A stretch of 64,000 nt of DNA from Candidatus Nomurabacteria bacterium. GTDB taxonomy: Bacteria; Patescibacteriota; Minisyncoccia; Phycocordibacterales; UBA9973. Shown here one piece after another: positions 3,534 to 54,691 of the stretch; position 1 is the stretch's first letter, and the number at the start of each line of letters is the position of its first letter. The DNA lies in NCBI GenBank assembly GCA_021413905.1, contig JAIOPO010000004.1, positions 1,597 to 65,596 of the forward strand, given 5' to 3'. Both the position numbers and the translations under genes were made by a program. The notes beneath the pieces are model-generated. The model did not search any database and had not been told where the DNA came from. It saw nothing but the letters and a program-made list of their open reading frames with translations.

Positions 3534-3611
3534 GAATCATTTATAAACCTTTTTAAACAAAAAAACAAGCCTCCATAAGAAAACTTGTCTGTGTTCCAAT
3601 ATTTTTTTAAA

Positions 3612-4040
3612 TCATACTCTTCTTAACGGTTTAAACAAAAAAACTGTATCGAAAGTGAAGCAACTATTTGTATTTCCGAAACAAGTAGTAATCTCCAAAT
3701 TCCCTGATTCAGAAATAAAAATCTCTGCAAAAAGACAAGTCATGGCATCCTTATTTTCTTTAGTAAAACCAATCGGACTAAAACCAATTTTTACATTTTT
3801 GCCTGAAAAAATTTTTCTTAATTTTTCCTGATTTTTACCATTCAAAGTATCGAGAATATCATTCAATGATTCTTCTCTAAAGAAATCAATAGACTGAACC
3901 TCAAAAGCTTTCTTATAAATCTCTTCATAAGTAAAAGCTTGTTTATATCCAAGCTTTTTAGCTAAATTGAAAATAAAAAACTCTACTTCTGTCGTTTCCA
4001 TATTCTTTTGGTTTAAATGAAATAAACAATTAAAGGACAA
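3612..4040 (-). CDS. Hypothetical protein (probable start at internal Met, METTEVEFF, ~4001)
   Basis: ORF only; no recognisable motifs. Confidence 0.3.
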   Translation of the reverse strand: MSFNCLFHLNQKNMETTEVEFFIFNLAKKLGYKQAFTYEEIYKKAFEVQSIDFFREESLNDILDTLNGKNQEKLRKIFSGKNVKIGFSPIGFTKENKDAMTCLFAEIFISESGNLEITTCFGNTNSCFTFDTVFLFKPLRRV

Positions 4041-4090
4041 CCCTATCCTGAGATGATATTAACTTTTTTTAAAAAAACACAAGTAAAAAG

Positions 4091-4120
4091 AAAAAGCCAC
4101 AATATATATTGTGGCTTTTT
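4091..4120 (-). terminator. Intrinsic terminator downstream of rplL (perfect 8-bp stem GCCACAAT/ATTGTGGC, A/T-flanked, bidirectional)
   Basis: aaaaaGCCACAATatatATTGTGGCttttt read directly from the sequence. Confidence 0.7.
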
Positions 4121-4140
4121 CTAAATATTTGAAATTAAAT

Positions 4141-4506
4141 TTATTTAAGTTCAATTTTACCTCCTGCTTCTTCGATTTTCTTTTTCAATTCTTCAGCTTC
4201 AGCTTTCTTCATACCATCTTTCAATGTCGCTGGAGCGCCGTCTACCAAGTCTTTAGCTTCTTTCAAGCCAAGACCTAGAACTTCTTTTACGACTTTCATA
4301 ACAGCGATTTTTTGTTCACCTGCAGCCGCTAATACAACTGTAAATGAATCTTTTTCTTCAACTGCGTCTGCACCTGCTGCAGGACCAGCCACTGCTACTG
4401 CAGCAGCAGAAACTCCGAATTTTTCTTCAATAGCCTTTACTAAATCGTTAAGATCTAATACAGACATACCTTCTATTTTTTCTAACAAATCTTTAAATTT
4501 TTCCAT
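4141..4506 (-). CDS. rplL: 50S ribosomal protein L7/L12
   Basis: Ala-rich hinge and conserved C-terminal domain ([22 protein letters not shown]...[17 protein letters not shown]). Confidence 0.95.
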
Positions 4507-4532
4507 AATATTTTATTAATTAATATTTATAA

Positions 4533-5012
4533 TTATTTCTTTTTAGCAACCTCATTCAAACCTAATGCCAATCTTTGCATAGGAGATTTGAGCAAGAAAG
4601 CCAATCTTGAAAGCAACACTTCTCTGCCCGGGATAGTAGCGATTTCCATCATTCTACCACCATCTACGAATTTACCTTCAAAAATACCTCCCAAAATATT
4701 TAACATATTTTTATGAGTTTTTTGAAAATTGTAAATCTCACGAGCTGGAGCTATCTCATCTGCGGAATATGCCATTGCGACTTCTCCGCCAAGCTCTGGG
4801 ATTTCCCCTTCCGCTTTGCCAGTCAATGCGCGTTTCAACAAAGTCTTTCTTGAAACTTTATAAGAAACACCTTGATTTCTCAAGTCACGACGAAGAGATG
4901 TCTCATCTCCTGCTGTCATGCCATGAAAATTCACAAAGACAACAGATTTTGAACCGGAAACATTTGTCTCCAAATCCTTTATCATTTCTTCTTTTCTATT
5001 TTTTGTAAGCAT
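4533..5012 (-). CDS. rplJ: 50S ribosomal protein L10
   Basis: L10 fold motifs and the conserved position immediately upstream of rplL. Confidence 0.9.
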   Translation of the reverse strand: MLTKNRKEEMIKDLETNVSGSKSVVFVNFHGMTAGDETSLRRDLRNQGVSYKVSRKTLLKRALTGKAEGEIPELGGEVAMAYSADEIAPAREIYNFQKTHKNMLNILGGIFEGKFVDGGRMMEIATIPGREVLLSRLAFLLKSPMQRLALGLNEVAKKK

Positions 5013-5170
5013 AATTGATTTTATTTTTTAAATTAAAAAACGGCCTTTCAGCCGCAAATTTATACACCTAAATGTATCGACCCCTAGATAGGACCTCTTC
5101 CCTCGATAAACTCGGGATGCCTACCTTCATTGCGGTATTTAAAGTATAACACAAAACTATATTTTTGCAA
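5013..5170 (-). promoter_or_regulatory. Candidate structured rplJ leader (L10-leader-like) with a small hairpin plus U-tract attenuator just upstream of the start codon
   Basis: Locally GC-rich 5' UTR in an AT-rich genome. On the minus strand GCGGCUGAAAGGCCG followed by UUUUUU (plus 5035-5056) lies ~25 nt before the rplJ ATG. Confidence 0.35.
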
Positions 5171-5367
5171 ATGATTTTATTACAAACAAATCATCCAAAA
5201 TAATCAGTCAGAAAATAAGCAGTTAAACCTAAAATCAAAAGAAATAAAAAAATCAAAAGTGTCTTAAAAAAATGTTTATTTACCATCTTTTTATTATATA
5301 TGAAAATATAATATATTAAAAATATATAAAGCTTTATTTTAAAAATATTTTATGTATACTAATCTAT

Positions 5368-6651
5368 ATGGACAGATCAAGGAAAATGATACTTTTTGCG
5401 GGTGATATATCTATGTTATATATTGCAGGCTATTTAACACTCCTTATTCGTTTTGGTATTAAACAAGCTTCTAACGAAATACCGACTCATATTTTACCTT
5501 TTATTATTTGGACAATACTATTATCTATTATTTTTTATATTTTTAATCTTTACGAAACGACATCTGTAAAATTAACTTTTAAAAACTTAAAACAATTTTT
5601 ATTTGCATTATCTACGAGCATAGTCTCAGGTATAATGTTATTTTATTTATTTCCCTTTTCCATAACTCCAAAAACAAACTTATTATTGACTCAAATATTA
5701 TTTTCCTTATTTATTTTAATTTGGCGTAGATTTTACTACAATATTTTTTCAAAAAAATTTAAAAATCAAATTGCTTTCATTGGAAAAACAACACCTGAAT
5801 CAGAAATATTAATAAAAAATATAATTGAAAATCCACATATAGGATATTCATTTATTGGAAATTTTAAAAATTTCTCAGATTTACAAACAAGTAAAATAAA
5901 AATAAATACAATAGTTTATACTGAAAAAGATAATTCTATAAATTTGGAAGAGCTAAGCAAATCAGATTATGATTATCTAAACATAACAAAAGCATTTCAA
6001 ATCATTTTAAATAAAATACCGGTCAGTCTTATGGATAACGAAATTGCTTTAAATATTTTAGAAAACAAAAAGAACATTGTTTTTAACAGTATCAAAAGAT
6101 TAACTGATATAATATTTTCAATAACAATACTTATAATCACCTTACCAGTAACCATAATAACCGCACTTTTAATATTCATAGAAGACAGAAAAAATATATT
6201 TTATAAACAAATTCGTGTTGGTTACAAGAAAAAAAAATTTAATATAATAAAATTTCGTTCAATGAATATAAATGCCGAAAAAAATGGTGCTGTTTGGGCA
6301 ATAGAAAAAGATCCACGCACAACTTTTGTCGGAAAAATAATAAGAAAATTACATATAGATGAAATACCACAAATGATAAATATACTCAAAGGAGATATTT
6401 CACTAATAGGTCCCCGACCTGAAAGACCTGAATTTGTTGAAATTCTAGAAAAAGAAATTCCTTTTTACTTTTTACGTCAAACAATAAAACCTGGTTTCAC
6501 AGGCTGGGCACAAATAAAATTTCGATATGCACGATCAGTGGTAGACAGTAGAGAAAAATTTGAATACGATTTATATTATATCAACAATTGGAATTTGTTT
6601 TTAGACTTAGGAATTTTAATAAAAACAATTCAAATAATTTTTAGTCATTAA
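5368..6651 (+). CDS. Polyprenyl-phosphate sugar phosphotransferase (bacterial sugar transferase, WbaP/WcaJ-like priming enzyme)
   Basis: N-terminal TM helices and a C-terminal domain with KFRSM...DEIPQ...ISLIGPRPERPEFV...KPGFTGWAQI motifs. Confidence 0.85.
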   Translation: MDRSRKMILFAGDISMLYIAGYLTLLIRFGIKQASNEIPTHILPFIIWTILLSIIFYIFNLYETTSVKLTFKNLKQFLFALSTSIVSGIMLFYLFPFSITPKTNLLLTQILFSLFILIWRRFYYNIFSKKFKNQIAFIGKTTPESEILIKNIIENPHIGYSFIGNFKNFSDLQTSKIKINTIVYTEKDNSINLEELSKSDYDYLNITKAFQIILNKIPVSLMDNEIALNILENKKNIVFNSIKRLTDIIFSITILIITLPVTIITALLIFIEDRKNIFYKQIRVGYKKKKFNIIKFRSMNINAEKNGAVWAIEKDPRTTFVGKIIRKLHIDEIPQMINILKGDISLIGPRPERPEFVEILEKEIPFYFLRQTIKPGFTGWAQIKFRYARSVVDSREKFEYDLYYINNWNLFLDLGILIKTIQIIFSH

Positions 6652-7750: not shown

Positions 7751-8884
7751 TTAATTAAAAAGATTTTTAATTTTCAAAACAAGATTTTCCCATTTATAAT
7801 TTTCATAAACAAAATCCTTAGCTTCTTTTATTAAATTATTTTTTAAATTTAAATCTTGTAACATTAAAATCTTTTCTGCTATATCATTAGGATTAAATGG
7901 ATCACAAAACAAACCAGTTTTTTTATCAAATAGAAAATCTACAATACCGCCAACTTTTGTGCCAATAATAGGTAGACCAAAAGACATGGCTTCAATAAAA
8001 GAATTTCCTAATCCTTCTGAAAAAGAAGGCCTGATGAATATGTCAGCATATTTAAAATAACTTGGTATTTTTTTATGTTCCACATCACCAATAAAAAAAA
8101 CTCTATCATTTAATTTATGATCGAAAACTATTTTTTTTAATTTATTTTCAAGAAACCCTGAGCCAATAATTAATAATTTGTAATTATCAGATAAATAATT
8201 TAAAGACAAAATACAATTTGCTATATTATTTTTTTCAACTAACCTAGAGGTGGTTATTAAATAAATATCATCTTGTTTCTTGTTTAAAACAATATCAGAA
8301 TTCTGTTTTACATCAGAAGAAAAAATATTTATATCTACACCGTTAGGTATTATTTCAATTTTTTTTGCTCCCATTTCAACGGCAAAAAATGCCAAATAAT
8401 TAGAAATAACATGAACTATTTTAGCTCTTTTAAATATCAATTTATAAAAAGGCATTATGAAAAAAAATTTTCTTTTAATAATTTCTACAGATTTTCCTTC
8501 TTGAATAGTTAAAATATATGGAATTTTTGAATATAAAAAATTAAAAAACAAAACGGCAAACCCTGCATAACTTGCCATTAAAGACCAAGTGAAATCGTAT
8601 CTTTTTTTATTATTCAATTGAATTGCTTTAAATAAAGCAAGCAGAGGAAATATTATTTTTTGAAAAGAAAAAAATATTTCATTTTTTGTACACCAACCTA
8701 CATTATACACATTGATGTTTCCTATTTTTTTAAATAAAGAATTATTTTTTCTTAAAGTTATCATATCAAAAACAAAACCGTCATCCATACGATCAGTAAA
8801 TTCTTTTATTGCTATTTCTGCTCCACCGACAAATTCAGGCAAAAAAACAACAGAAAATATTAAAATTTTTTTACTATTTTTCAT
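7751..8884 (-). CDS. Glycosyltransferase family 4
   Basis: FSEGLGNSFIEAMSFGLPIIGTKVGGIVDF motif. Likely start is MKNSKK (ORF track extends to 8917). Confidence 0.75.
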   Translation of the reverse strand: MKNSKKILIFSVVFLPEFVGGAEIAIKEFTDRMDDGFVFDMITLRKNNSLFKKIGNINVYNVGWCTKNEIFFSFQKIIFPLLALFKAIQLNNKKRYDFTWSLMASYAGFAVLFFNFLYSKIPYILTIQEGKSVEIIKRKFFFIMPFYKLIFKRAKIVHVISNYLAFFAVEMGAKKIEIIPNGVDINIFSSDVKQNSDIVLNKKQDDIYLITTSRLVEKNNIANCILSLNYLSDNYKLLIIGSGFLENKLKKIVFDHKLNDRVFFIGDVEHKKIPSYFKYADIFIRPSFSEGLGNSFIEAMSFGLPIIGTKVGGIVDFLFDKKTGLFCDPFNPNDIAEKILMLQDLNLKNNLIKEAKDFVYENYKWENLVLKIKNLFN

Positions 8885-24526: not shown

Positions 24527-24586
24527 CCCCTGTTTTGAGTTTATTTAATAAAATAATTTCAAAACAGGGGAAGCCGAAAACCTGTT
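24527..24586 (+). promoter_or_regulatory. Candidate RNA switch: 12-bp perfect stem (CCCCTGTTTTGA/TCAAAACAGGGG) whose 3' arm can alternatively pair with downstream CCTGTT
   Basis: Read from sequence; lies ~35 nt upstream of the 24621 ORF. Confidence 0.3.
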
Positions 24587-24620
24587 CCAGAGTAGGCACG
24601 ATCAAAAAAAATGAACAAAA

Positions 24621-36864: not shown

Positions 36865-39800
36865 TTATTCTATCACAACCTTAAATACCAATTCGTTGAT
36901 TTTTATTTCATTGCCGTCATTTTTTGTAAAATCAATTTGTTTAACGCCGACAATCTTCAAAAATTCATCTTTGAATTTATTTATTATTTCTTTGCCTTTT
37001 TCATCAGTATCAATTTTCAACACTATCAAATCACTAGGCATCAAACCTTTTGTTTTCCGCATATCTTGCACAGCTCGCACTAGCTCGCGATAATTGCCTT
37101 CTATTTTTAATTCTGGTGTGATTTCTGTATCTAATTTTATAACATCTTCTACATTTTCAGATTTAATAAATTCAACATTTTTTATATTCAATTCTTCTTT
37201 TAGAATCTCTATATAATTTATATTAAATTCATGATAAAAAATTTGAATATTACTCAAAGGCTGTCTTACGGGAATTCCTGATTTTTGTCTTTCTTTTAAA
37301 CCAGATGAAACAATTTCTCTGACTTGTTTCATATTTTCTAAAATTTCATCATTAAAATTTAAAATATTTACTTCCGGCCATTCTGCCAAATGTACAGATT
37401 CTACATCATTTTTATTTTTTAATTTTTGCCAAATATCTTCGGACGCAAAAGGCGCAAATGGGGCCATAATTTTCACTAAATTTTTCAACACAAAATACAG
37501 AGTTTGTTTTGCTTCGATATCTCCATTTTTAATTCTCTCTCTTGAACGACGCAAATACCAAGTAGAAAGATCATCGATAAAATCACGAACAGCACGCACT
37601 GGTTCCAATGTTCTATAATTGTCTAAATTATCTGTTACAGTTTTATTCAATTCATTTAAACGCGCCAAAATCCATTGATCTAAAATATTTTCAGATTTTA
37701 ATTCTGTGAATACTTCTAATTGTGGATCTCTATAGAGTTCATAAAAAGCGACGACGTTATAAAGCAAACCAAAAAATTGACGATGAATTTCCATGACAGT
37801 TCTCTCATCAAAATTCTTTGATTCACCCGGTTGATTTACGGAATACATCCAAAGACGAATAGTGTCCGCGCCATATTTTTCAAACATAAGCCAAGGGTCC
37901 ACGACATTTCCTTTTGACTTTGACATTTTTTGTCCATTTGCGTCTAAGATATGCCCCAAACAAACGACATTTTTATAAGCATTACCAGGTTCATCAGAAA
38001 GTAAATTTATAACTGCATGCAAAGTATAAAACCATCCGCGAGTCTGATCTATCGCTTCAGAAATATAATCCGCTTTTATCGGATTAAAATCAATCTCTTT
38101 ACCCAGAATATGATTTTGAGCATAAGGCATAGCCCCAGAATCAAACCACACATCCATCACTTCTCCCGTGCGAATCATTTTTTGACCATTATCTTCCAAA
38201 ACTATCTCATCAATATATGGCTTATGAAAATCCAATTCGTAATTTGCATTATGAGGTAATGGCACAAAATCTAATTCCTTGATTTCAGCATTTTGAAAAA
38301 AATGAAAATCTTTTTTATCTAAAATCATTTTTAATGTTTCTTTTACATTTTTTCCTTCAATACCTGCACACAACAACCAAGCAGGACCACCATGAGTCAC
38401 AAATAAAATATTTTTGTCTTTGTATTTTTCTTCAACATCATACAAAAATGCTGTCATACGATTTTTCACATCTTGATATGATTCATCATCCTCTACATGC
38501 AAATTAAAATTTGCTTCCGTTTTTATGTGATATTTATGATATTCTTCCCAATTCTTTCCATCAAAAGAATACGCTCCTATTTCTCGCAGTCTTTCATCTT
38601 TGATAATATTTTCTTTATTCAATCCCAATTTTTGAGCGACGATTTCCGCAGTTTCAATAGTACGAGTAAAATCAGAAGTAAATATCAAATCAATTTTTTT
38701 ATCTTTCAGAAATTCTGCGGAAATTTCCACTTGCTCTTTACCGTCTTTATCTAAATGCCATTTACCTGAAGGTTGTGTGCAAATTATATTTTTTTTATTT
38801 GCTTCTGTTTCTCCATGTCTCATTACAAAATATTTATTGCCTGATTTTTTAGTATATTTTTTCAAATCAGCCAAAGAACCGACAACTTTATAAGAGCCAT
38901 CTTCTTTTTGCCAAACAGGTATCGGTGTACCCCAATATCTATCTCTGGATATAGCCCAATCTTTTATACCATCAAGCCATTCACCAAAACGTCCTTTTTT
39001 AATATATTCCGGCTCCCAATTTATTTTTTCATTTCCTGCGAGCAATTGTTCGCGAAGCGCACTCATGCGGAAATACCAAGAAGAACGTGCGTAATAAATG
39101 AGCGGTGTATCACAACGCCAACAATGCGGATAGCTATGCATATAATTTTCTTTTTTAAACAAAAGACTTCGTTCTGTTAAATGATTTATTATATCCACAG
39201 CCAAAGTAGGTTTACCGTTCTCATCTGTTTCTTTTACATATCTACCTGCTAAGAAATCCGTACCGATGACGAATTTTCCTTCTTCATTTACTGTATGATA
39301 TTTAGGCAAACCGACTTTTGTACCAAGCTCAAAATCATCTGCTCCATACATAACAGCGGTATGCACTATACCCGTACCGTCAGTAGTCGTAACAAAATCC
39401 GCTCCGTAAATTTTAAAAGCATTTTTTATTTTTTCATCATCTTTAGCCAAATCTTTTAAATATGGGAACAATGGTTCGTATTCCATACCAATCATTTCAC
39501 TGCCTTTATGTTCAGCAATAATTTCATACGGCTGATTTAATATTTCCAATCTTTCTTTTGCCAACACTAAAATCTCATCACCGACTTTTGCCTCAACGTA
39601 AATAAAATCATTACCAACTGCAAGTCCGACATTTCCCGGTAAAGTCCAAGGCGTTGTCGTCCATGCCAAAAAATATGCGTGATCGAAATTTTTAATTTTA
39701 AATTTTATATATACGGACAAATCTTTCACATCCTTATATGCTCCCGGTTGTGAGAGTTCATGACTTGAGAGGGCCGTACCACAACGTGTACACCAAGGCA

Positions 39801-49982: not shown

Positions 49983-51761
49983 TTACATAATATCAACAAT
50001 CCTAAGCCTCAGCTCTTCACGACCGCGGAAACGAGATAAATCAAAAGTCGCCAGTAAGTTTACAGACAATCCTTCGGCTAAAGGAATTTTAAAGGAATCT
50101 AAGCCAGAGAAAAATGAAATCGCTGTGGCTTTTTTGTTATTATCGGAAAAAATAATTTCTAGATGTTCTTGTGAATTATTTTTTCCGAATTTTTTCAATT
50201 TTTCTATTTTCACATTTTCAAAAAGAAAAATAGGCTTTGGATTTTCACAACCAAATGGCGCCATTTTTTCTATTTCTTTCCAATTTTTCATATTTACGTC
50301 AGTGAGAGATAATTTTAAATCAAAAAGTGTGGGAGATTGCTTTTCTGTAGCCGAGGACTGTCTGAGCGTAGCGAGTTCCGCAGGCAAAGAAAAAATATCA
50401 CCTGCACTTTTTGCACGAATATTTACAAAAGAACTAGACAAAGCTTCCTCCAAAAAATGCACTTTTTCTGTATGCACTGTAAATCCTCCCGCGCCTTCGT
50501 GCCCGCCAAATTCCAAGAAATACTCACGTGTTTCTGTCATCAACTCAACAACAGACACTGAGCCATCTGACCGACAAGAACCTTTTATAAAATCATTCTC
50601 ATCTTTACCCCACACAAACACGGGCTTTTTATGTTCATCACAAATCTTACCCGCAACAAGACCGAGCACACCCACTTTCCATTCCGGATGCCCTATAACT
50701 ATCACTTCGTTCATTTCACGTTTCTCGAATTTTTTATTCACATCTTTCATAATACCAGCAACCATTTTTTTTCTTTCGTCATTTATTTTCGTCAAATGAT
50801 TTGCCAAAATTCCTGCCTCCGTTTCATCTTGCGTTGCCAACAATTCAAAAGCTCGGCGCGGATCATCCATACGCGATGCAGCATTAAGTCGAGGCGTCAC
50901 CATAAAACCAATATCGTCTTCAGAAATATATTTCTGATCTATGCTCATCTTTGCCAAAAGTTTTTGCAAACCCGGACGCGGAGATTTCCTAAAAACTTTC
51001 AAACCAAAATATGCAATCACTCTATTTTCTCCCAACAACGGCACCATGTCAGAAAGTGTCGCTAGCCCCGCCATATCAAGCAACCATTTCTCCCAAGAGA
51101 GAGGCGCGGGTATTGTGTTTTCTGTAGCCGAGGACTGTCTGAGCGTAGCGAGTTCCGCAGGCAAAGGAAACACAATACCCGCGCCTCCATACTTCTTCAA
51201 AAAACCTTGCACCAATTTAAAAACAACCCCAGACCCACATAACATTTTTTCCGAATATTCGTCTACTTTCGGATTCAAAATAGCATACGCTCGCGGAAGC
51301 TCTGCGTGCGGAATATGGTGATCTGTAATTATAACATCAATGCCGTACACAATAGCTTGAGCTACTTCTGCCACAGCTGTGATGCCTAAATCAATCGTGA
51401 TTAAAAGCTTCACACCGTCTGCGTCCATTTTTTTTACCATTTCCAAATTCAAACCATATCCTTCAGAATTTCTTTGCGGAATATATACTTCAAAATTTTT
51501 ATAATTTAATTTATTAAAAAAGTCATTCAATATCACCGCGCCTGGAATGCCGTCGCAATCATAATCCGCATATACCAATATTTTTTCTCCAGCTTCCATC
51601 GCTTCAAAAATCCGCACGCAAGCTTTTTCCATATCGCGCATTAAAAAAGGATCGTGCATATCGCGTTCATAATTTGGATTTAGGAAAATCTCTTTTTGCT
51701 CGGCTGTTGTAATGCCTCGTTTTTCCAATAATTCATTTAATAGGCTACTTGGTTGCATAAA
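49983..51761 (-). CDS. recJ: Single-stranded-DNA-specific exonuclease RecJ (DHH/DHHA1), with two in-frame copies of a ~73-bp repeat element
   Basis: DHH motifs (YADYDCDG, DHH) and DHHA1. Probable start is MQPSSLL (ORF track start 51908). Confidence 0.85.
   Translation of the reverse strand, partial: FMQPSSLLNELLEKRGITTAEQKEIFLNPNYERDMHDPFLMRDMEKACVRIFEAMEAGEKILVYADYDCDGIPGAVILNDFFNKLNYKNFEVYIPQRNSEGYGLNLEMVKKMDADGVKLLITIDLGITAVAEVAQAIVYGIDVIITDHHIPHAELPRAYAILNPKVDEYSEKMLCGSGVVFKLVQGFLKKYGGAGIVFPLPAELATLRQSSATENTIPAPLSWEKWLLDMAGLATLSDMVPLLGENRVIAYFGLKVFRKSPRPGLQKLLAKMSIDQKYISEDDIGFMVTPRLNAASRMDDPRRAFELLATQDETEAGILANHLTKINDERKKMVAGIMKDVNKKFEKREMNEVIVIGHPEWKVGVLGLVAGKICDEHKKPVFVWGKDENDFIKGSCRSDGSVSVVELMTETREYFLEFGGHEGAGGFTVHTEKVHFLEEALSSSFVNIRAKSAGDIFSLPAELATLRQSSATEKQSPTLFDLKLSLTDVNMKNWKEIEKMAPFGCENPKPIFLFENVKIEKLKKFGKNNSQEHLEIIFSDNNKKATAISFFSGLDSFKIPLAEGLSVNLLATFDLSRFRGREELRLRIVDIM
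50331..50402. repeat. GC-rich repeat element copy A (49-bp identical core with imperfect terminal inverted repeats), in-frame inside recJ
   Basis: Core ttttctgtagccgaggactgtctgagcgtagcgagttccgcaggcaaag is identical to the copy at 51118-51166; encodes ...LPAELATLRQSSATE... Confidence 0.85.
51108..51180. repeat. GC-rich repeat element copy B with perfect 13-bp terminal inverted repeats (GGGTATTGTGTTT...AAACACAATACCC), in-frame inside recJ
   Basis: Read from sequence; 73 bp spans 24 codons plus 1 nt in the recJ frame. Confidence 0.85.
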
Positions 51762-51794: not shown

Positions 51795-52205
51795 ATGGAA
51801 GAGTGTATATTTTGTAAAATAATAAAAGGGCAAATCCCTAGCACGAAAATTTATGAGGATGATAAAACCCTCGCCTTTTTGGATATTGCGCCAGTAAACA
51901 TCGGGCACGCTTTAATAATACCTAAAGAACATTATGCAAATATATATGAAACTCCGGAAGACACTATGTCAGACATAATAAAAGTAGCTAAAAAAATATC
52001 TCTCGCTGTGAAAGAAGCAGTAAAAGCAGAAGGAGTAAATATTACAATGAACAATAACCACGCTGCCGGGCAAGTAATATTCCATTCACACATTCACGTC
52101 ATCCCCCGTTTCTCAAACGATGGCTTTGAACTCTGGCACGGTAAAAGAGCATACGAAGATGACGAAATGAAATCTGTTGCTGAAAATATTACTTCAAAGC
52201 TTTAA
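51795..52205 (+). CDS. HIT-family (histidine triad) nucleotide hydrolase
   Basis: HSHIHVIP histidine-triad motif; N-terminal CxxC-like IFCKI. Confidence 0.9.
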   Translation: MEECIFCKIIKGQIPSTKIYEDDKTLAFLDIAPVNIGHALIIPKEHYANIYETPEDTMSDIIKVAKKISLAVKEAVKAEGVNITMNNNHAAGQVIFHSHIHVIPRFSNDGFELWHGKRAYEDDEMKSVAENITSKL

Positions 52206-53232
52206 TTAAATTTTTATCATTAAAAAATTTAGAAAGTTTATACCCCCTACAATGAGACAAAATTCCTAAATAAGAAAACTTTGACTCTTTGAATAAATTT
52301 TGTTTCACTTTTCGTAAAATTCTTTTTTTAGTGGAAGTTCGCAAAACTTTATAATGTGTAAGAACTACATAACCAAGAAAATCCACTCCTTGCGATACTT
52401 TTCTAATTTCAACTTTTTTGGGATGTAATTTTAATTTAAGTTTCTCTTCTAAAAATTCGGAAATTTTTGGTAAAAGTAATTCAAGAAAATATTTATCTTT
52501 TGAAACGCACACGAAATCGTCACAATATCTTGCATAATATTTTACTTTTAAAACATGTTTCATAAACTGATCAAAAACATTCATATAAACATTTGCAAAA
52601 AGTTGACTTGTCACATTACCAAGAGGAAGACCTTTGCCTTCTAATTTTTCAAAACTTTTTATAATATTTTCTAAAAGCCATTTGGTTTCCAAGCACTCAA
52701 TTTTTTCAAAAAGAATTTTCTTTAAAATTTCGTGATCTATTGAATCAAAAAATTTAGAAATATCACACTTTAATACCCAAGCATTATTTTTATAATTTTT
52801 TGTTTCTTTTCTTAAAAAACTTTCAAGACGCTCAACTCCCGCGTGAGTGCCTTTATTAAATCGGCAAGCATAAGAATCATAAATAAAAGATGGATCATAA
52901 ATTTTATAAAGTTGGCGAAAAACAGCTTGATGCACTACCCTGTCTCGAACCTGTGCTTTGTGTATATGTCTTATTTTGGGGTCGCAAACATAAAAAGGCA
53001 CATATGGCTCATTTATATATGTTTTTCTTCGTAGAGAAAAATGAATATCCAAGATATTTTTTTCTAAATTAAATTCAAATTTCTGTATATCAGTTTTTTT
53101 ATTTTTTCCACGACGAAACTCTCGCCACGCAGACAAAAGATTGGAAGTGGAAATAATATGATAGAATAAATCACTATGATGACCCCCCCACTTACTTCCA
53201 ATAAAATTATCGAGCTCCCTGTTATTCTCCAT
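52189..53232 (-). CDS. Diversity-generating retroelement (DGR) reverse transcriptase
   Basis: RT motifs including YCDDF (motif C) and the DGR-specific motif 4 LPLGNVTSQLFANVYMN (I/LGxxxSQ instead of QGxxxSP). About 347 aa with no maturase domain. Confidence 0.85.
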   Translation of the reverse strand: MENNRELDNFIGSKWGGHHSDLFYHIISTSNLLSAWREFRRGKNKKTDIQKFEFNLEKNILDIHFSLRRKTYINEPYVPFYVCDPKIRHIHKAQVRDRVVHQAVFRQLYKIYDPSFIYDSYACRFNKGTHAGVERLESFLRKETKNYKNNAWVLKCDISKFFDSIDHEILKKILFEKIECLETKWLLENIIKSFEKLEGKGLPLGNVTSQLFANVYMNVFDQFMKHVLKVKYYARYCDDFVCVSKDKYFLELLLPKISEFLEEKLKLKLHPKKVEIRKVSQGVDFLGYVVLTHYKVLRTSTKKRILRKVKQNLFKESKFSYLGILSHCRGYKLSKFFNDKNLIKALK

Positions 53233-53562
53233 GTAAAGAGATTATATAAAATAATATATCAATTGGGAATAAAAATGCCGAAACAAAATAAATTGGGCAT
53301 ACATAAAGTGTTGGAAGAAAAAACATTACTAATACTTACTACATTAATTGATTCAGCACTTAGAAGTAGGCAAGACAAAATACAAACTCTAAATCAAGCT
53401 CGTAGAGATATTGAAGTCTTGAAACATCTTATTCGCCTAGAATATGAATTAAATATAATACAAGAGAAATCTTATATAAATTTATCAGCGATGCTTGAAA
53501 ATATCTCTATGATGACAACCGGTTGGATAAAGTCTCTCGGAACACAAAAGCCCCTCTATTGA
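53176..53562 (+). CDS. Avd-like four-helix-bundle protein (23S rRNA IVS protein family), DGR accessory variability determinant candidate
   Basis: ...IYQLGIKMPKQNKLGI...LNQARRDIEVLKHLIRLEYELNIIQEKSY...WIKSLG parallels IVS/Avd proteins. Start uncertain (53176 overlaps the RT start on the other strand; alternative ATG at 53275). Confidence 0.6.
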   Translation: MMTPPLTSNKIIELPVILHVKRLYKIIYQLGIKMPKQNKLGIHKVLEEKTLLILTTLIDSALRSRQDKIQTLNQARRDIEVLKHLIRLEYELNIIQEKSYINLSAMLENISMMTTGWIKSLGTQKPLY

Positions 53563-53583
53563 GGAGCTTTATGAGAAACTTCT

Positions 53584-53693
53584 GACGGAGACCGTTGTCG
53601 GAATTACGGTTGTCGCGATTGTCGTTGCTGATGTTGAACTGACCATTGTCGTTGCGGTTCATGTTCATCGCGTTACCGTCTGAATCGAGGGCT
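53584..53693 (-). repeat. DGR template repeat (TR), 110 bp
   Basis: Aligns base-for-base with 53959-54068. Of 20 mismatches, 19 fall where the TR coding (minus) strand has A; the TR coding frame is AAC/AAT-rich. Confidence 0.85.
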
Positions 53694-53884
53694 CTTTCTG
53701 TGAGTGTCCACCAATATCACCACATATCTTTTTCAAAATATGTTGAATTTTCCGGCACTAAAGCCGTCTCTGTTTGGAATCTAAATTCCCTAGACTCTCG
53801 CAGGCAGTTTCTATTGTTTGGCAAACTGTCATCACATTTTTTAAACGGATCAGCTTAACAGCCGAGTTAATTATAACAAAATTG

Positions 53885-53926
53885 TAAAAAAAAGTTCCCC
53901 TTGAATTAAAAAATCCAAAGGGAACA
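53885..53926 (-). terminator. Intrinsic terminator of the DGR target gene
   Basis: Minus strand reads GUUCCCUUUG(G)...CAAGGGGAAC, a ~10-bp stem, followed by U8. Confidence 0.7.
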
Positions 53927-53944
53927 AGATAATAGTCAAGAGGT

Positions 53945-54691
53945 TTAGAAACCTACTTGACGGAGACCGTGGTCGGAAAGACGGCCGCCGCGATGGCCGC
54001 TGCCGATGTAGAACTGACCATAGTCGCGGCGGATCATGAACATCGCGTGCCCGCCTGAATCGAGGGCTGCAAAACGTGTGAGTCCTTTGACATCATACAT
54101 TTTACTAGTCTCAGTCCGATGACGAAAAGCGGCGATGATGCCTTCTTTCGGCACCATAAACTTGGTGCCGGCTTCGATACCGTCATCATAGCTTTTGCCT
54201 AGCATGTCGGGCTCGTCTCCGCCGACGTGGCACATGGGATAGTCGCCTTCGGGGCGCGCTTGCTGTTCGCGAATTGCATCGGTGATGCTGTCGTAATATT
54301 TCCATACAGCATCCTTTCCGAACTTTTTCGCATAGGCTTCAAGTGCCTGATCCTCGGTGATGTCGGAAAAAATAACCTCAAGGCGAGACATTTTTTCAGT
54401 TTTCACCGGCAAAGAAAGTTTCGTCCAGTCAACCTGACGGTTGAAGAATTTTTTGTAAAATATTTCTATCTTACGTTTTTCTTCAGTCCAGTGGTCAACT
54501 TTTACACCGAGAACTTCTTCGCAGAATTTCTCGGTCAGTTCTTCAAGCTCTTTTTTGTCACTCAAGACAAAGTGTTGCGCTTGGTCAAAACTGAAACCTC
54601 CATCGCCCAGCACACGAATAATGGTGCCGGCAATTTTAAAACCAATTGCAGACAACTGCCCCGTGGTTGCGGGTTTTTGCTGATTTGTCAT
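53945..54691 (-). CDS. DGR target protein with C-terminal variable region (C-type-lectin/FGE-like fold suspected); GC-rich relative to neighbours
   Basis: 3' 110 bp (53959-54068) is the variable repeat. C-terminus ...IGSGHRGGRLSDHGLRQVGF resembles the CLec-fold VR ends (…GFRxV) of known DGR targets. Confidence 0.75.
   Translation of the reverse strand: MTNQQKPATTGQLSAIGFKIAGTIIRVLGDGGFSFDQAQHFVLSDKKELEELTEKFCEEVLGVKVDHWTEEKRKIEIFYKKFFNRQVDWTKLSLPVKTEKMSRLEVIFSDITEDQALEAYAKKFGKDAVWKYYDSITDAIREQQARPEGDYPMCHVGGDEPDMLGKSYDDGIEAGTKFMVPKEGIIAAFRHRTETSKMYDVKGLTRFAALDSGGHAMFMIRRDYGQFYIGSGHRGGRLSDHGLRQVGF
53959..54068 (-). repeat. DGR variable repeat (VR) at the 3' end of the target gene
   Basis: See the TR alignment; adenine-specific substitutions. 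Confidence 0.85.

Follow-up and report, generated by a model that had tools for sequence, protein, structure and literature searches.

The recJ gene in a 64,000-nucleotide stretch of DNA from a Candidatus Nomurabacteria bacterium (contig JAIOPO010000004.1, positions 1,597 to 65,596; hereafter the window) contains the same 49-nucleotide (nt) sequence twice, each time at the tip of a potential hairpin. How can one GC-rich sequence occupy two places in a coding sequence and keep it open, and which part of it matters: the encoded peptide, the arms of the hairpin, or its tip? The reading developed here, to which a probability of about 0.5 is assigned, is that the two segments are small non-autonomous hairpin-forming insertion elements, in which a 32-nt apical module is functional and the arms need only pair.

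Two hairpins with an identical tip in recJ

The features of the two copies are as follows (window coordinates).

49983–51758, minus strand: recJ coding sequence, host of both copies, 591 amino acids from ATG
50321–50413, plus strand: copy A hairpin, about 93 nt, encodes RecJ residues ~450–479
50341–50389, plus strand: copy A, 49-nt stretch identical to copy B
50352–50383, plus strand: copy A 32-nt module, apex GCGTAGC at 50366–50372
51101–51187, plus strand: copy B complete hairpin (arm, tip, arm), 87 nt, encodes RecJ residues 191–220
51101–51120: copy B 5' arm GAGGCGCGGGTATTGTGTTT, perfect reverse complement of 51168–51187
51118–51166, plus strand: copy B, 49-nt stretch identical to copy A
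51129–51160, plus strand: copy B 32-nt module CGAGGACTGTCTGAGCGTAGCGAGTTCCGCAG, apex GCGTAGC at 51143–51149
51168–51187: copy B 3' arm AAACACAATACCCGCGCCTC, perfect 20-bp inverted repeat with 51101–51120

The 49-nt string occurs exactly twice in the window, with zero occurrences expected from 100 shuffles. It is composed of the 32-nt module and an inner stem of a Nomurabacteria type, TTTTCTGTAGC / GCAAAG. Both copies are in frame in the recJ open reading frame (ORF) and encode the peptide LPAELATLRQSSATE at residues 199–213 and 458–472. Five of the six reading frames of the 49-mer are open, and both of its orientations are translatable. The GC content of the 49-mer is 55%, that of the remaining recJ 38%, and that of the window 33%. 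A preliminary description of this DNA had already placed the shared core at exactly these two positions, in frame and richer in GC than its host gene, and all of this holds. Its dimensions of the element were too small: the perfect inverted repeat of copy B extends over 20 bp instead of 13 bp, and the hairpins measure 87 nt (copy B) and about 93 nt (copy A) instead of about 73 bp.

The arms of copy A, about 24 nt each (50321–50344 and 50390–50413), are imperfectly complementary. The arms of copy B are unrelated to those of copy A and to those of the orthologues described below. Because the repeats flanking the two copies are mutually unrelated, they are not the terminal repeats of one element. 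The module of copy B fits the consensus of the modules from other phyla, and in the nhmmer search its E-value is 4e-13. An nhmmer profile of the core detects no third copy in the window; a marginal match at 38631–38651 was rejected as a partial chance match. A scan of the window for other GC-rich islands resembling hairpin inserts of this kind found none.

Both segments are insertions tolerated by RecJ

The protein encoded by recJ contains the DHH, DHHA1, and RecJ_OB domains in this order (Pfam E-values of 8.6e-22, 2.3e-10, and 1.1e-21). Its sequence matches a database RecJ of 'Candidatus Nomurabacteria bacterium' at 100% identity and aligns with the solved RecJ chains 8y30, 5f54, 1ir6, and 2zxo. 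In an alignment of 120 RecJ orthologues with about 70% identity, site B is free of an insert in 87 sequences, which instead share a loop of constant length, KKYGEYF|KIKEGAEKW, and about 25 sequences have 17–29 extra residues there. The element at site A is present in the RecJ of the window alone. Relative to insert-free orthologues, each insert adds 21 residues.

An AlphaFold model of RecJ, calculated from an alignment of 96 sequences, has a mean predicted local distance difference test (pLDDT) score of 86.7. Values below 50 are found at residues 198–219 (copy B) and 455–476 (copy A), which are the two inserts. The other low-confidence stretch comprises four residues, 97–100, and the only long loops of low pLDDT, 18 and 22 residues in length, are those of the inserts. 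Both fall at breaks or gaps in the alignment to the solved RecJ structures, and they are positioned in disordered loops distant from the conserved RecJ motifs. Both recJ segments are insertions, translated as disordered surface loops that RecJ tolerates; alignment and structure model agree in this with the insertion into loop regions that the preliminary description had proposed.

These comparisons also bear on the trivial explanation, according to which the repeat belongs to RecJ itself, is similar by chance, or is an artefact of assembly or adapters. Read-through of a hairpin adapter would in principle produce a sequence, a loop, and the reverse complement of the sequence. However, no chance matches are expected, the arms are only about 20 nt long, and the gene continues in frame on both sides of them. 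Moreover, related inserts are present in more than 25 orthologues from NCBI, ENA, JGI, and Logan assemblies, and among the sources are complete chromosomes and cultured isolates. The probability of this explanation is negligible.

In other RecJ orthologues there are GC-rich palindromic inserts of a different kind, likewise in frame but without the 32-nt module; they are located at RecJ site A in locus L005 (positions ~7900–7975), at site A of locus L179, and in alignment columns 181–211. One of them encodes SGGEEPRTSPDKG and forms a hairpin of -42 kcal/mol, and another encodes GTSPHVGGGQ (CCTCCCCCCATGTAGGGGGAGG). Short GGHSS inserts are also present. Hairpins have landed repeatedly in the same RecJ loops.

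Core, arms, and orientation in orthologous recJ genes

The DNA of 11 insert-bearing recJ orthologues was compared. At the orthologous site, the central 32 nt are on average 95% identical, the recJ flanks 67–77%, and the arms 47–48%, whereas random 21-mers reach 42%. Nevertheless, the two arms are complementary to each other in every one of the 11 orthologues. The inner stem, TTTTGYAGM...GCAAAA, is also present in orthologues. The arms were apparently not carried along as fixed terminal repeats, and they appear to be remodelled quickly; the hairpin may template its own correction, or re-insertion or inversion may recur.

Many orthologues encode FLPAELASLRQSSAAK at site B, and others encode VAEDCLSEASSAGKK, which is the reverse-complement reading at the same site. 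The amino-acid variants in the inserts, S/T/A/P and R/K, match the two free bases of the core, N and Y. Since the variation of the peptide is that of the two free bases, selection acts on the nucleotides and not on the peptide.

A neighbour-joining tree distributes the insert-bearing RecJ sequences over at least eight clades, one of which contains both orientations. Within two sister pairs of filled and empty sites, the filled allele has a net gain of 63 nt exactly after TTT|AAA, and the seven native codons 5' of this point (KKYSEFF) are overwritten at constant length by the 5' arm.

The occurrence of both orientations at one recJ site within a clade raises the possibility that the segment is an intragenic invertible switch, in which recombination between the inverted repeats flips the tip and generates two RecJ isoforms, with LPAELASLRQSS or EDCLSEASSA. 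Locus L131 (reverse) and loci L135 and L155 (forward) indeed have the same arms and differ by an inversion of GTTTTAGCAGC-core-GCAAKAAAAT, and both orientations are open reading frames. However, there is no recombinase within ~8 kb of recJ in the window, and the arms differ between species, which leaves no recombination site that is conserved. In other phyla most copies of the module lie between genes, and the insert forms a disordered loop far from the conserved RecJ motifs. Any flipping would in that case be incidental to the inverted repeats, and a dedicated switch is very improbable.

A 32-nt module caps hairpins in many phyla

What is conserved is a 32-nt module at the tip of the hairpin, CGAGGACTGTYTGAGCGNAGCGAGTTCCGCAG, with the layout CGAGGAC-TGTYT-GA-GCGNAGC-GA-GTTCCGCAG. 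A scan of genomes, one per species, with the pattern CGAGGANTGNNTNAGNGNAGCGAGTTNCGC identified at least 120 loci, and a metagenome scan aimed at the subtype with AT-rich flanks added 49 more. Among the matches listed, five of the seven positions left free by the pattern are invariant and only Y11 and N18 vary. The information content drops abruptly outside G(-1) and C(+33). The apex consists of module positions 15–21, GCGNAGC, where N is A in 79, C in 19, T in 10, and G in 7 of the matches listed.

According to record titles, the module is present in Nitrospirales, with several copies per complete chromosome; in Methylotenera, Gallionella, Iodobacter, and Janthinobacterium; in many marine and soil Gammaproteobacteria; in Lachnospiraceae, Eubacteriales, Bacteroidales, and Spirochaetota; in Sulfurimonas, Desulfobulbaceae, Thermodesulfobacteriota, and Oligoflexia; and in Saccharibacteria and other Patescibacteria. 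We take these groups to represent about nine phyla. Cultured carriers are Maricurvus nonylphenolicus KU41E, Iodobacter arcticus, and Pseudobutyrivibrio sp. YE44. IMG/VR contains one match (L127), with the same arms and core as the copy in the topoisomerase I gene of a Saccharibacteria locus (L054); the L127 contig is probably cellular and not viral.

Copies in L177, L179, and L070 (the second copy, at position 3569) have the apex GCAAAGC instead of GCGNAGC, and their peptide becomes LPAELALLKQSS. The first genome scan, which required G at this position, therefore missed part of the family.

Searches of existing collections did not identify the module. Rfam contains no matching family at gathering or permissive thresholds, and the only matches, to microRNA-like hairpins, are chance ones far below threshold. 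Translated composite repeats, described below, have no match in Pfam. Collections of plasmids, phages, and E. coli provided no credible match; the weak 28-nt matches in Ralstonia megaplasmids have an E-value of 0.1. The peptide search of a set of 5.8 billion proteins, in which five translated frames were concatenated, produced 337 word candidates, none with E <= 10, ten-residue matches being too short for the tool. A literature search for the sequence, the peptide, and related keywords found no description of the module. The core is not known to fit the hammerhead, twister, kink-turn, BHB-intron, SECIS, attC, dif, parS, or CS-6/ssoA motifs.

Arms that pair but are not conserved

The module always caps locus-unique, self-complementary arms. 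Their complementarity score has a median of 14 within a locus versus 5 between loci. Covariation was evaluated on 15 loci in the same register, with a helix of 26 bp. In this set 96.7% of cells pair, a level inflated in absolute terms because the loci were chosen for good pairing; the shuffled (57.5%) and slid (41–51%) controls are unaffected by this choice. Changes on both sides occur in 24 of the 26 pairs. Such replacements can also be seen among copies of one genome: in a Pseudomonadales metagenome-assembled genome (L040, L086, L087, L098, L102, L108), composite copies differ by a compensatory swap of C-G to G-C in the arm, and L040 carries the mismatched intermediate. The module caps locus-specific hairpins in many phyla.

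Genomic context and dispersal

In Patescibacteria, the hairpin is often intragenic and in frame. Besides RecJ, its host proteins include TsaD, SHMT, TopA, a class-I aminoacyl-tRNA synthetase, a DEAD/RecG-like helicase, and a Pif1-like helicase, and among these proteins it is read in three different frames and in both orientations. Elsewhere, the module is mostly intergenic and often multicopy. In genomes rich in GC, a composite repeat of about 200–250 nt, specific to the lineage, has the hairpin as its first module. The second module is an AT-rich stem of 10–13 bp capped by GGCGAAGC or CCGAAA, and the third, a GC stem, ends in a CGAAA loop; loops of the GCGAAGC or CGAAA type cap these further hairpins as well. 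The order of the modules is identical in Nitrospirota, Beta- and Gammaproteobacteria, and Bacteroidales; examples are L016 (7350–7760) and the sequences downstream of the core in L032, L119, L012, and L044. Near-identical composite copies are found at several loci of one genome, which indicates dispersal.

The composite also yields spurious ORFs, for example those encoding FCFGKRTQN and LLLRQKESNQRKGDP. In locus L001, a gene for a Y1 transposase (IS200/RAYT-like, PF01797) is located just downstream of recJ (4800–6100). This enzyme was considered as a partner of the element and rejected: the gene is bracketed by its own unrelated palindrome, ACTTGGGAGTTCAACTCCCAAGT, and the transposase was not found in the window or the other loci searched. 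In locus L160 (3765–4842), a gene for a xerC/xerD-like tyrosine recombinase (3832–4863, minus strand) lies between two oppositely oriented hairpins, a single case that may be a coincidence.

Which strand folds, and as DNA or RNA

The strand that folds was determined from the mismatches in the arms. In a strict alignment with one representative for each of 93 arm families, the strand that reads CGAGGAC has 46 G·T or T·G mismatches versus 10 A·C or C·A (p = 1e-6), and 30 families favour G·T versus 6 that favour A·C. A looser alignment had given an uninformative count of 140 versus 129, since it drew in the unpaired conserved flanks, and is superseded by the strict one. The excess of G·T over A·C identifies the CGAGGAC strand as the one that folds. 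Deamination bias would be expected to have the opposite sign, given the usual location of this strand, and pairing on it appears to be under selection.

Folding energies in the window agree: its plus strand, which reads CGAGGAC, folds better than the minus strand for both copies and with both RNA and DNA parameters. For copy B the RNA values are -54.5 kcal/mol (z of -8.9) on the plus strand and -47.0 kcal/mol on the minus strand, and the DNA values are -29.6 and -26.2 kcal/mol. For copy A the plus strand folds at -32.1 kcal/mol (z of -3.5) and the minus strand at -25.0 kcal/mol. The CGAGGAC strand is the locally C-rich one in 56 of the 77 loci with a clear skew and the opposite in 21. Of the loci in AT-rich genomes, 14 have it antisense to both flanking genes and 2 have it in the sense direction of both.

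A conserved tip on a paired stem could also be the core of a structured RNA, cis-acting or a small RNA hairpin, such as a protein-binding tip on a long stem that resembles a kink-turn or K-loop; the recJ copies would then be incidental or degenerate insertions of the gene for this RNA. Extreme conservation combined with covarying stems is a classic signature of RNA, and mismatches of the G·U type are enriched on one strand. In our own reading of the sequence, tandem G·A pairs can be drawn next to a GNA loop in the core, and the place of the hairpin as the first of three in a composite of constant order is reminiscent of an RNA gene. Against this, permissive Rfam thresholds give no match. The folding strand is mostly antisense to its neighbours; relative to the recJ mRNA it is antisense in most of the orthologues, with both orientations occurring at the same site. 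Intragenic copies have no room for a promoter. Finally, the apex motif has a much lower stability in RNA than in DNA form (PMC13037366). An RNA is an unlikely identity for the module.

The apex of the module meets the GCGNAGC motif of 'mini-hairpin DNA', which is far more stable as DNA than as RNA (PMC13037366). Mini-hairpins of the GCGNAGC/GCGNNAGC type bind the single-stranded DNA-binding protein SSB poorly, and they mark primase-dependent origins of complementary-strand synthesis of phages G4, St-1, and alpha3 as well as the ssiA site of RSF1010 (PMC13037366). Together, the wobble bias, the strand orientation, and the DNA-stable apex favour a hairpin of single-stranded DNA.

By analogy with these origins, the hairpin may be a signal useful to the host, such as a single-strand initiation (ssi)-like site that excludes SSB and recruits primase or another factor of replication or repair. 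It would then be kept by host selection and not by selfish spread. Apart from the shared apex motif, this idea is consistent with the two CTG triplets directly 5' of the apex, CTG being the preferred start site of DnaG. It also fits the purifying selection on the core at a fixed orthologous site and the preferred orientation of the folding strand relative to GC skew. However, the distribution among taxa is patchy, the copy number ranges from few to dozens per genome, and most RecJ orthologues lack the element. The module is absent from the E. coli, plasmid, and phage sequences searched, and the position of CTG relative to the hairpin differs from that in G4. A host signal of this kind is improbable.

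A proposed mobile hairpin tip and the evidence that weighs against it

The preferred reading, that of small insertion elements with a functional tip, can be spelled out as follows. The active form would be a single-stranded DNA hairpin, nucleated by the very stable GCGNAGC apex. A trans-acting activity may recognise the tip and spread the element, or may have spread it in the past. The arms would stay complementary and turn over fast through hairpin-templated correction or selection for pairing. In the window, one of the two copies may have given rise to the other through a local event, most simply a duplication or conversion of the tip, which would account for identical 49-nt stretches between unrelated arms. 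In the compact genomes of Patescibacteria, the element may survive inside permissive protein loops.

Several results weigh against this reading. No target-site duplication was found in the two pairs of filled and empty recJ sites, although these pairs have diverged and short duplications may have been erased. Clustering of the neighbouring genes identified no shared protein, whether transposase, nuclease, or other, but only the translated repeats. A tblastn search with the protein of L001 found no Y1 transposase in the window or in about 170 loci. No two copies in Patescibacteria have arms in common, so movement of the whole hairpin is not seen there. At a site that is old and vertically inherited, the core has kept 95% identity, which suggests selection on this particular copy. 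Such selection is not predicted for a purely selfish element and makes a function at the level of the host, or some other new function, a real possibility. The wobble bias is as compatible with RNA as with single-stranded DNA, and the orientation bias is weak in GC-rich genomes. The scans required 23 fixed bases, so divergent relatives were invisible to them and part of the 'invariance' arises by construction; the covariation set, likewise, was pre-selected for good pairing.

A broader proposal is made more tentatively. The 32-nt module could be a previously undescribed signal shared across phyla, a sequence-specific hairpin tip read as single-stranded DNA, or possibly as RNA, by a conserved protein of the cell or of a mobile element. 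Its arms would be free, it could be written into coding sequences in both directions, and it would be under purifying selection even within genes. It would then constitute a new class of repeat with its own propagation or maintenance and not a variant of the repetitive extragenic palindromic (REP) sequences, miniature inverted-repeat transposable elements (MITEs), or Rickettsia palindromic elements (RPEs).

Neighbourhood of recJ and other features of the window

The neighbours of recJ are genes for RNase H, ComEC, and a HIT protein, a diversity-generating retroelement (DGR) cassette, and housekeeping genes. The DGR is complete and adjoins recJ at 52189–54691.

52189–53232, minus strand: DGR reverse transcriptase
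53176–53562, plus strand: DGR bAvd-like four-helix protein
53583–53693: DGR template repeat
53958–54068: DGR variable repeat, at the 3' end of the ORF 53945–54691 (minus strand)

Nineteen of the 20 differences between the template and variable repeats are at T on the plus strand, corresponding to A on the coding strand. The cassette separates the genes for HIT and PGK, which are immediate neighbours in the syntenic locus L003. The sole Rfam match in the window is a DUF805b RNA motif at 24564–24598 (plus strand), with 41.5 bits compared to a gathering score of 35.6.

Significance

A sequence of 32 bases that is fixed in Patescibacteria and equally in Nitrospirota, Bacteroidota, Bacillota, and Proteobacteria, and is present in none of the catalogues searched, implies that an interaction of a nucleic acid with a protein has gone unrecognised. 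The implied interaction may concern replication, repair, or mobility. With a tip that is read and arms that merely pair, the element provides a natural system for studying how palindromes arise, stay perfect, and invert. In annotation, it accounts for the 'extra loops' that recur in essential proteins of candidate phyla and for spurious ORFs in GC-rich genomes. For evolution, it indicates that in-frame colonisation of genes by hairpin elements is not peculiar to Rickettsia. The three cultured carriers make the open questions directly testable.

Comparison with known systems

The preliminary description likened the recJ repeats to RPEs, and part of this likeness stands. As in RPEs, a hairpin-forming repeat is inserted in frame into housekeeping genes of a reduced, AT-rich genome and translated as an extra surface segment. 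RPEs are about 100–150 bp long, alignable over their whole length, and not known outside Rickettsia. In a comparison of designs, the conserved tip with variable arms is different: only the 32–49-nt tip is common to the copies, the arms are unique to each locus, and the module is distributed over about nine phyla. The preliminary view of an element flanked by terminal inverted repeats, possibly a family of this genome, has to be revised accordingly. The inverted repeats differ at every locus and the loop is the conserved part, and the window contains only two copies, whereas the same module is present in distant phyla.

REP sequences and REPINs are likewise short palindromes, rich in GC and present in many copies; in GC-rich genomes most of them lie outside genes, and some belong to mosaic repeats. 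Like them, the element described here probably acts as a single-stranded DNA hairpin that depends on an enzyme supplied in trans. However, REP sequences and REPINs have a conserved, lineage-specific stem, whereas in this element the stem varies freely and the loop stays constant from phylum to phylum. Furthermore, in the loci examined no REP-associated tyrosine transposase (RAYT) is located near any copy, except for the Y1 transposase of L001 with its own palindromes. MITEs such as Correia/NEMIS share the small size, the non-autonomous nature, the terminal inverted repeats, and the occasional intragenic position. Their terminal repeats are the conserved part, bound by transposase, and are flanked by direct target duplications; in contrast, the arms of the element are not conserved, and no duplication was seen in the two filled/empty pairs.

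The GC clusters of yeast mitochondria are GC-rich palindromic mini-elements that have invaded AT-rich genomes, including coding regions in frame. They belong to another domain of life, have no sequence in common with the module, and are defined by a family-specific consensus of the whole element. The apex of the module is exactly the GCGNAGC, with a free N, of the ssi mini-hairpins (PMC13037366). Those known sites are single-copy origins of phages and plasmids, whereas the module is chromosomal, multicopy or intragenic, and has 25 further invariant bases. Intragenic invertons, too, consist of a segment within a gene between inverted repeats, with both orientations translatable and present among close relatives, but the element has no dedicated invertase and no conserved recombination site, and its module is mostly intergenic elsewhere. 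Because the conserved sequence of RPEs, REP sequences and REPINs, and MITEs is the whole element or its stem, the element lacks the defining features of all these families, and yet it behaves like an RPE.

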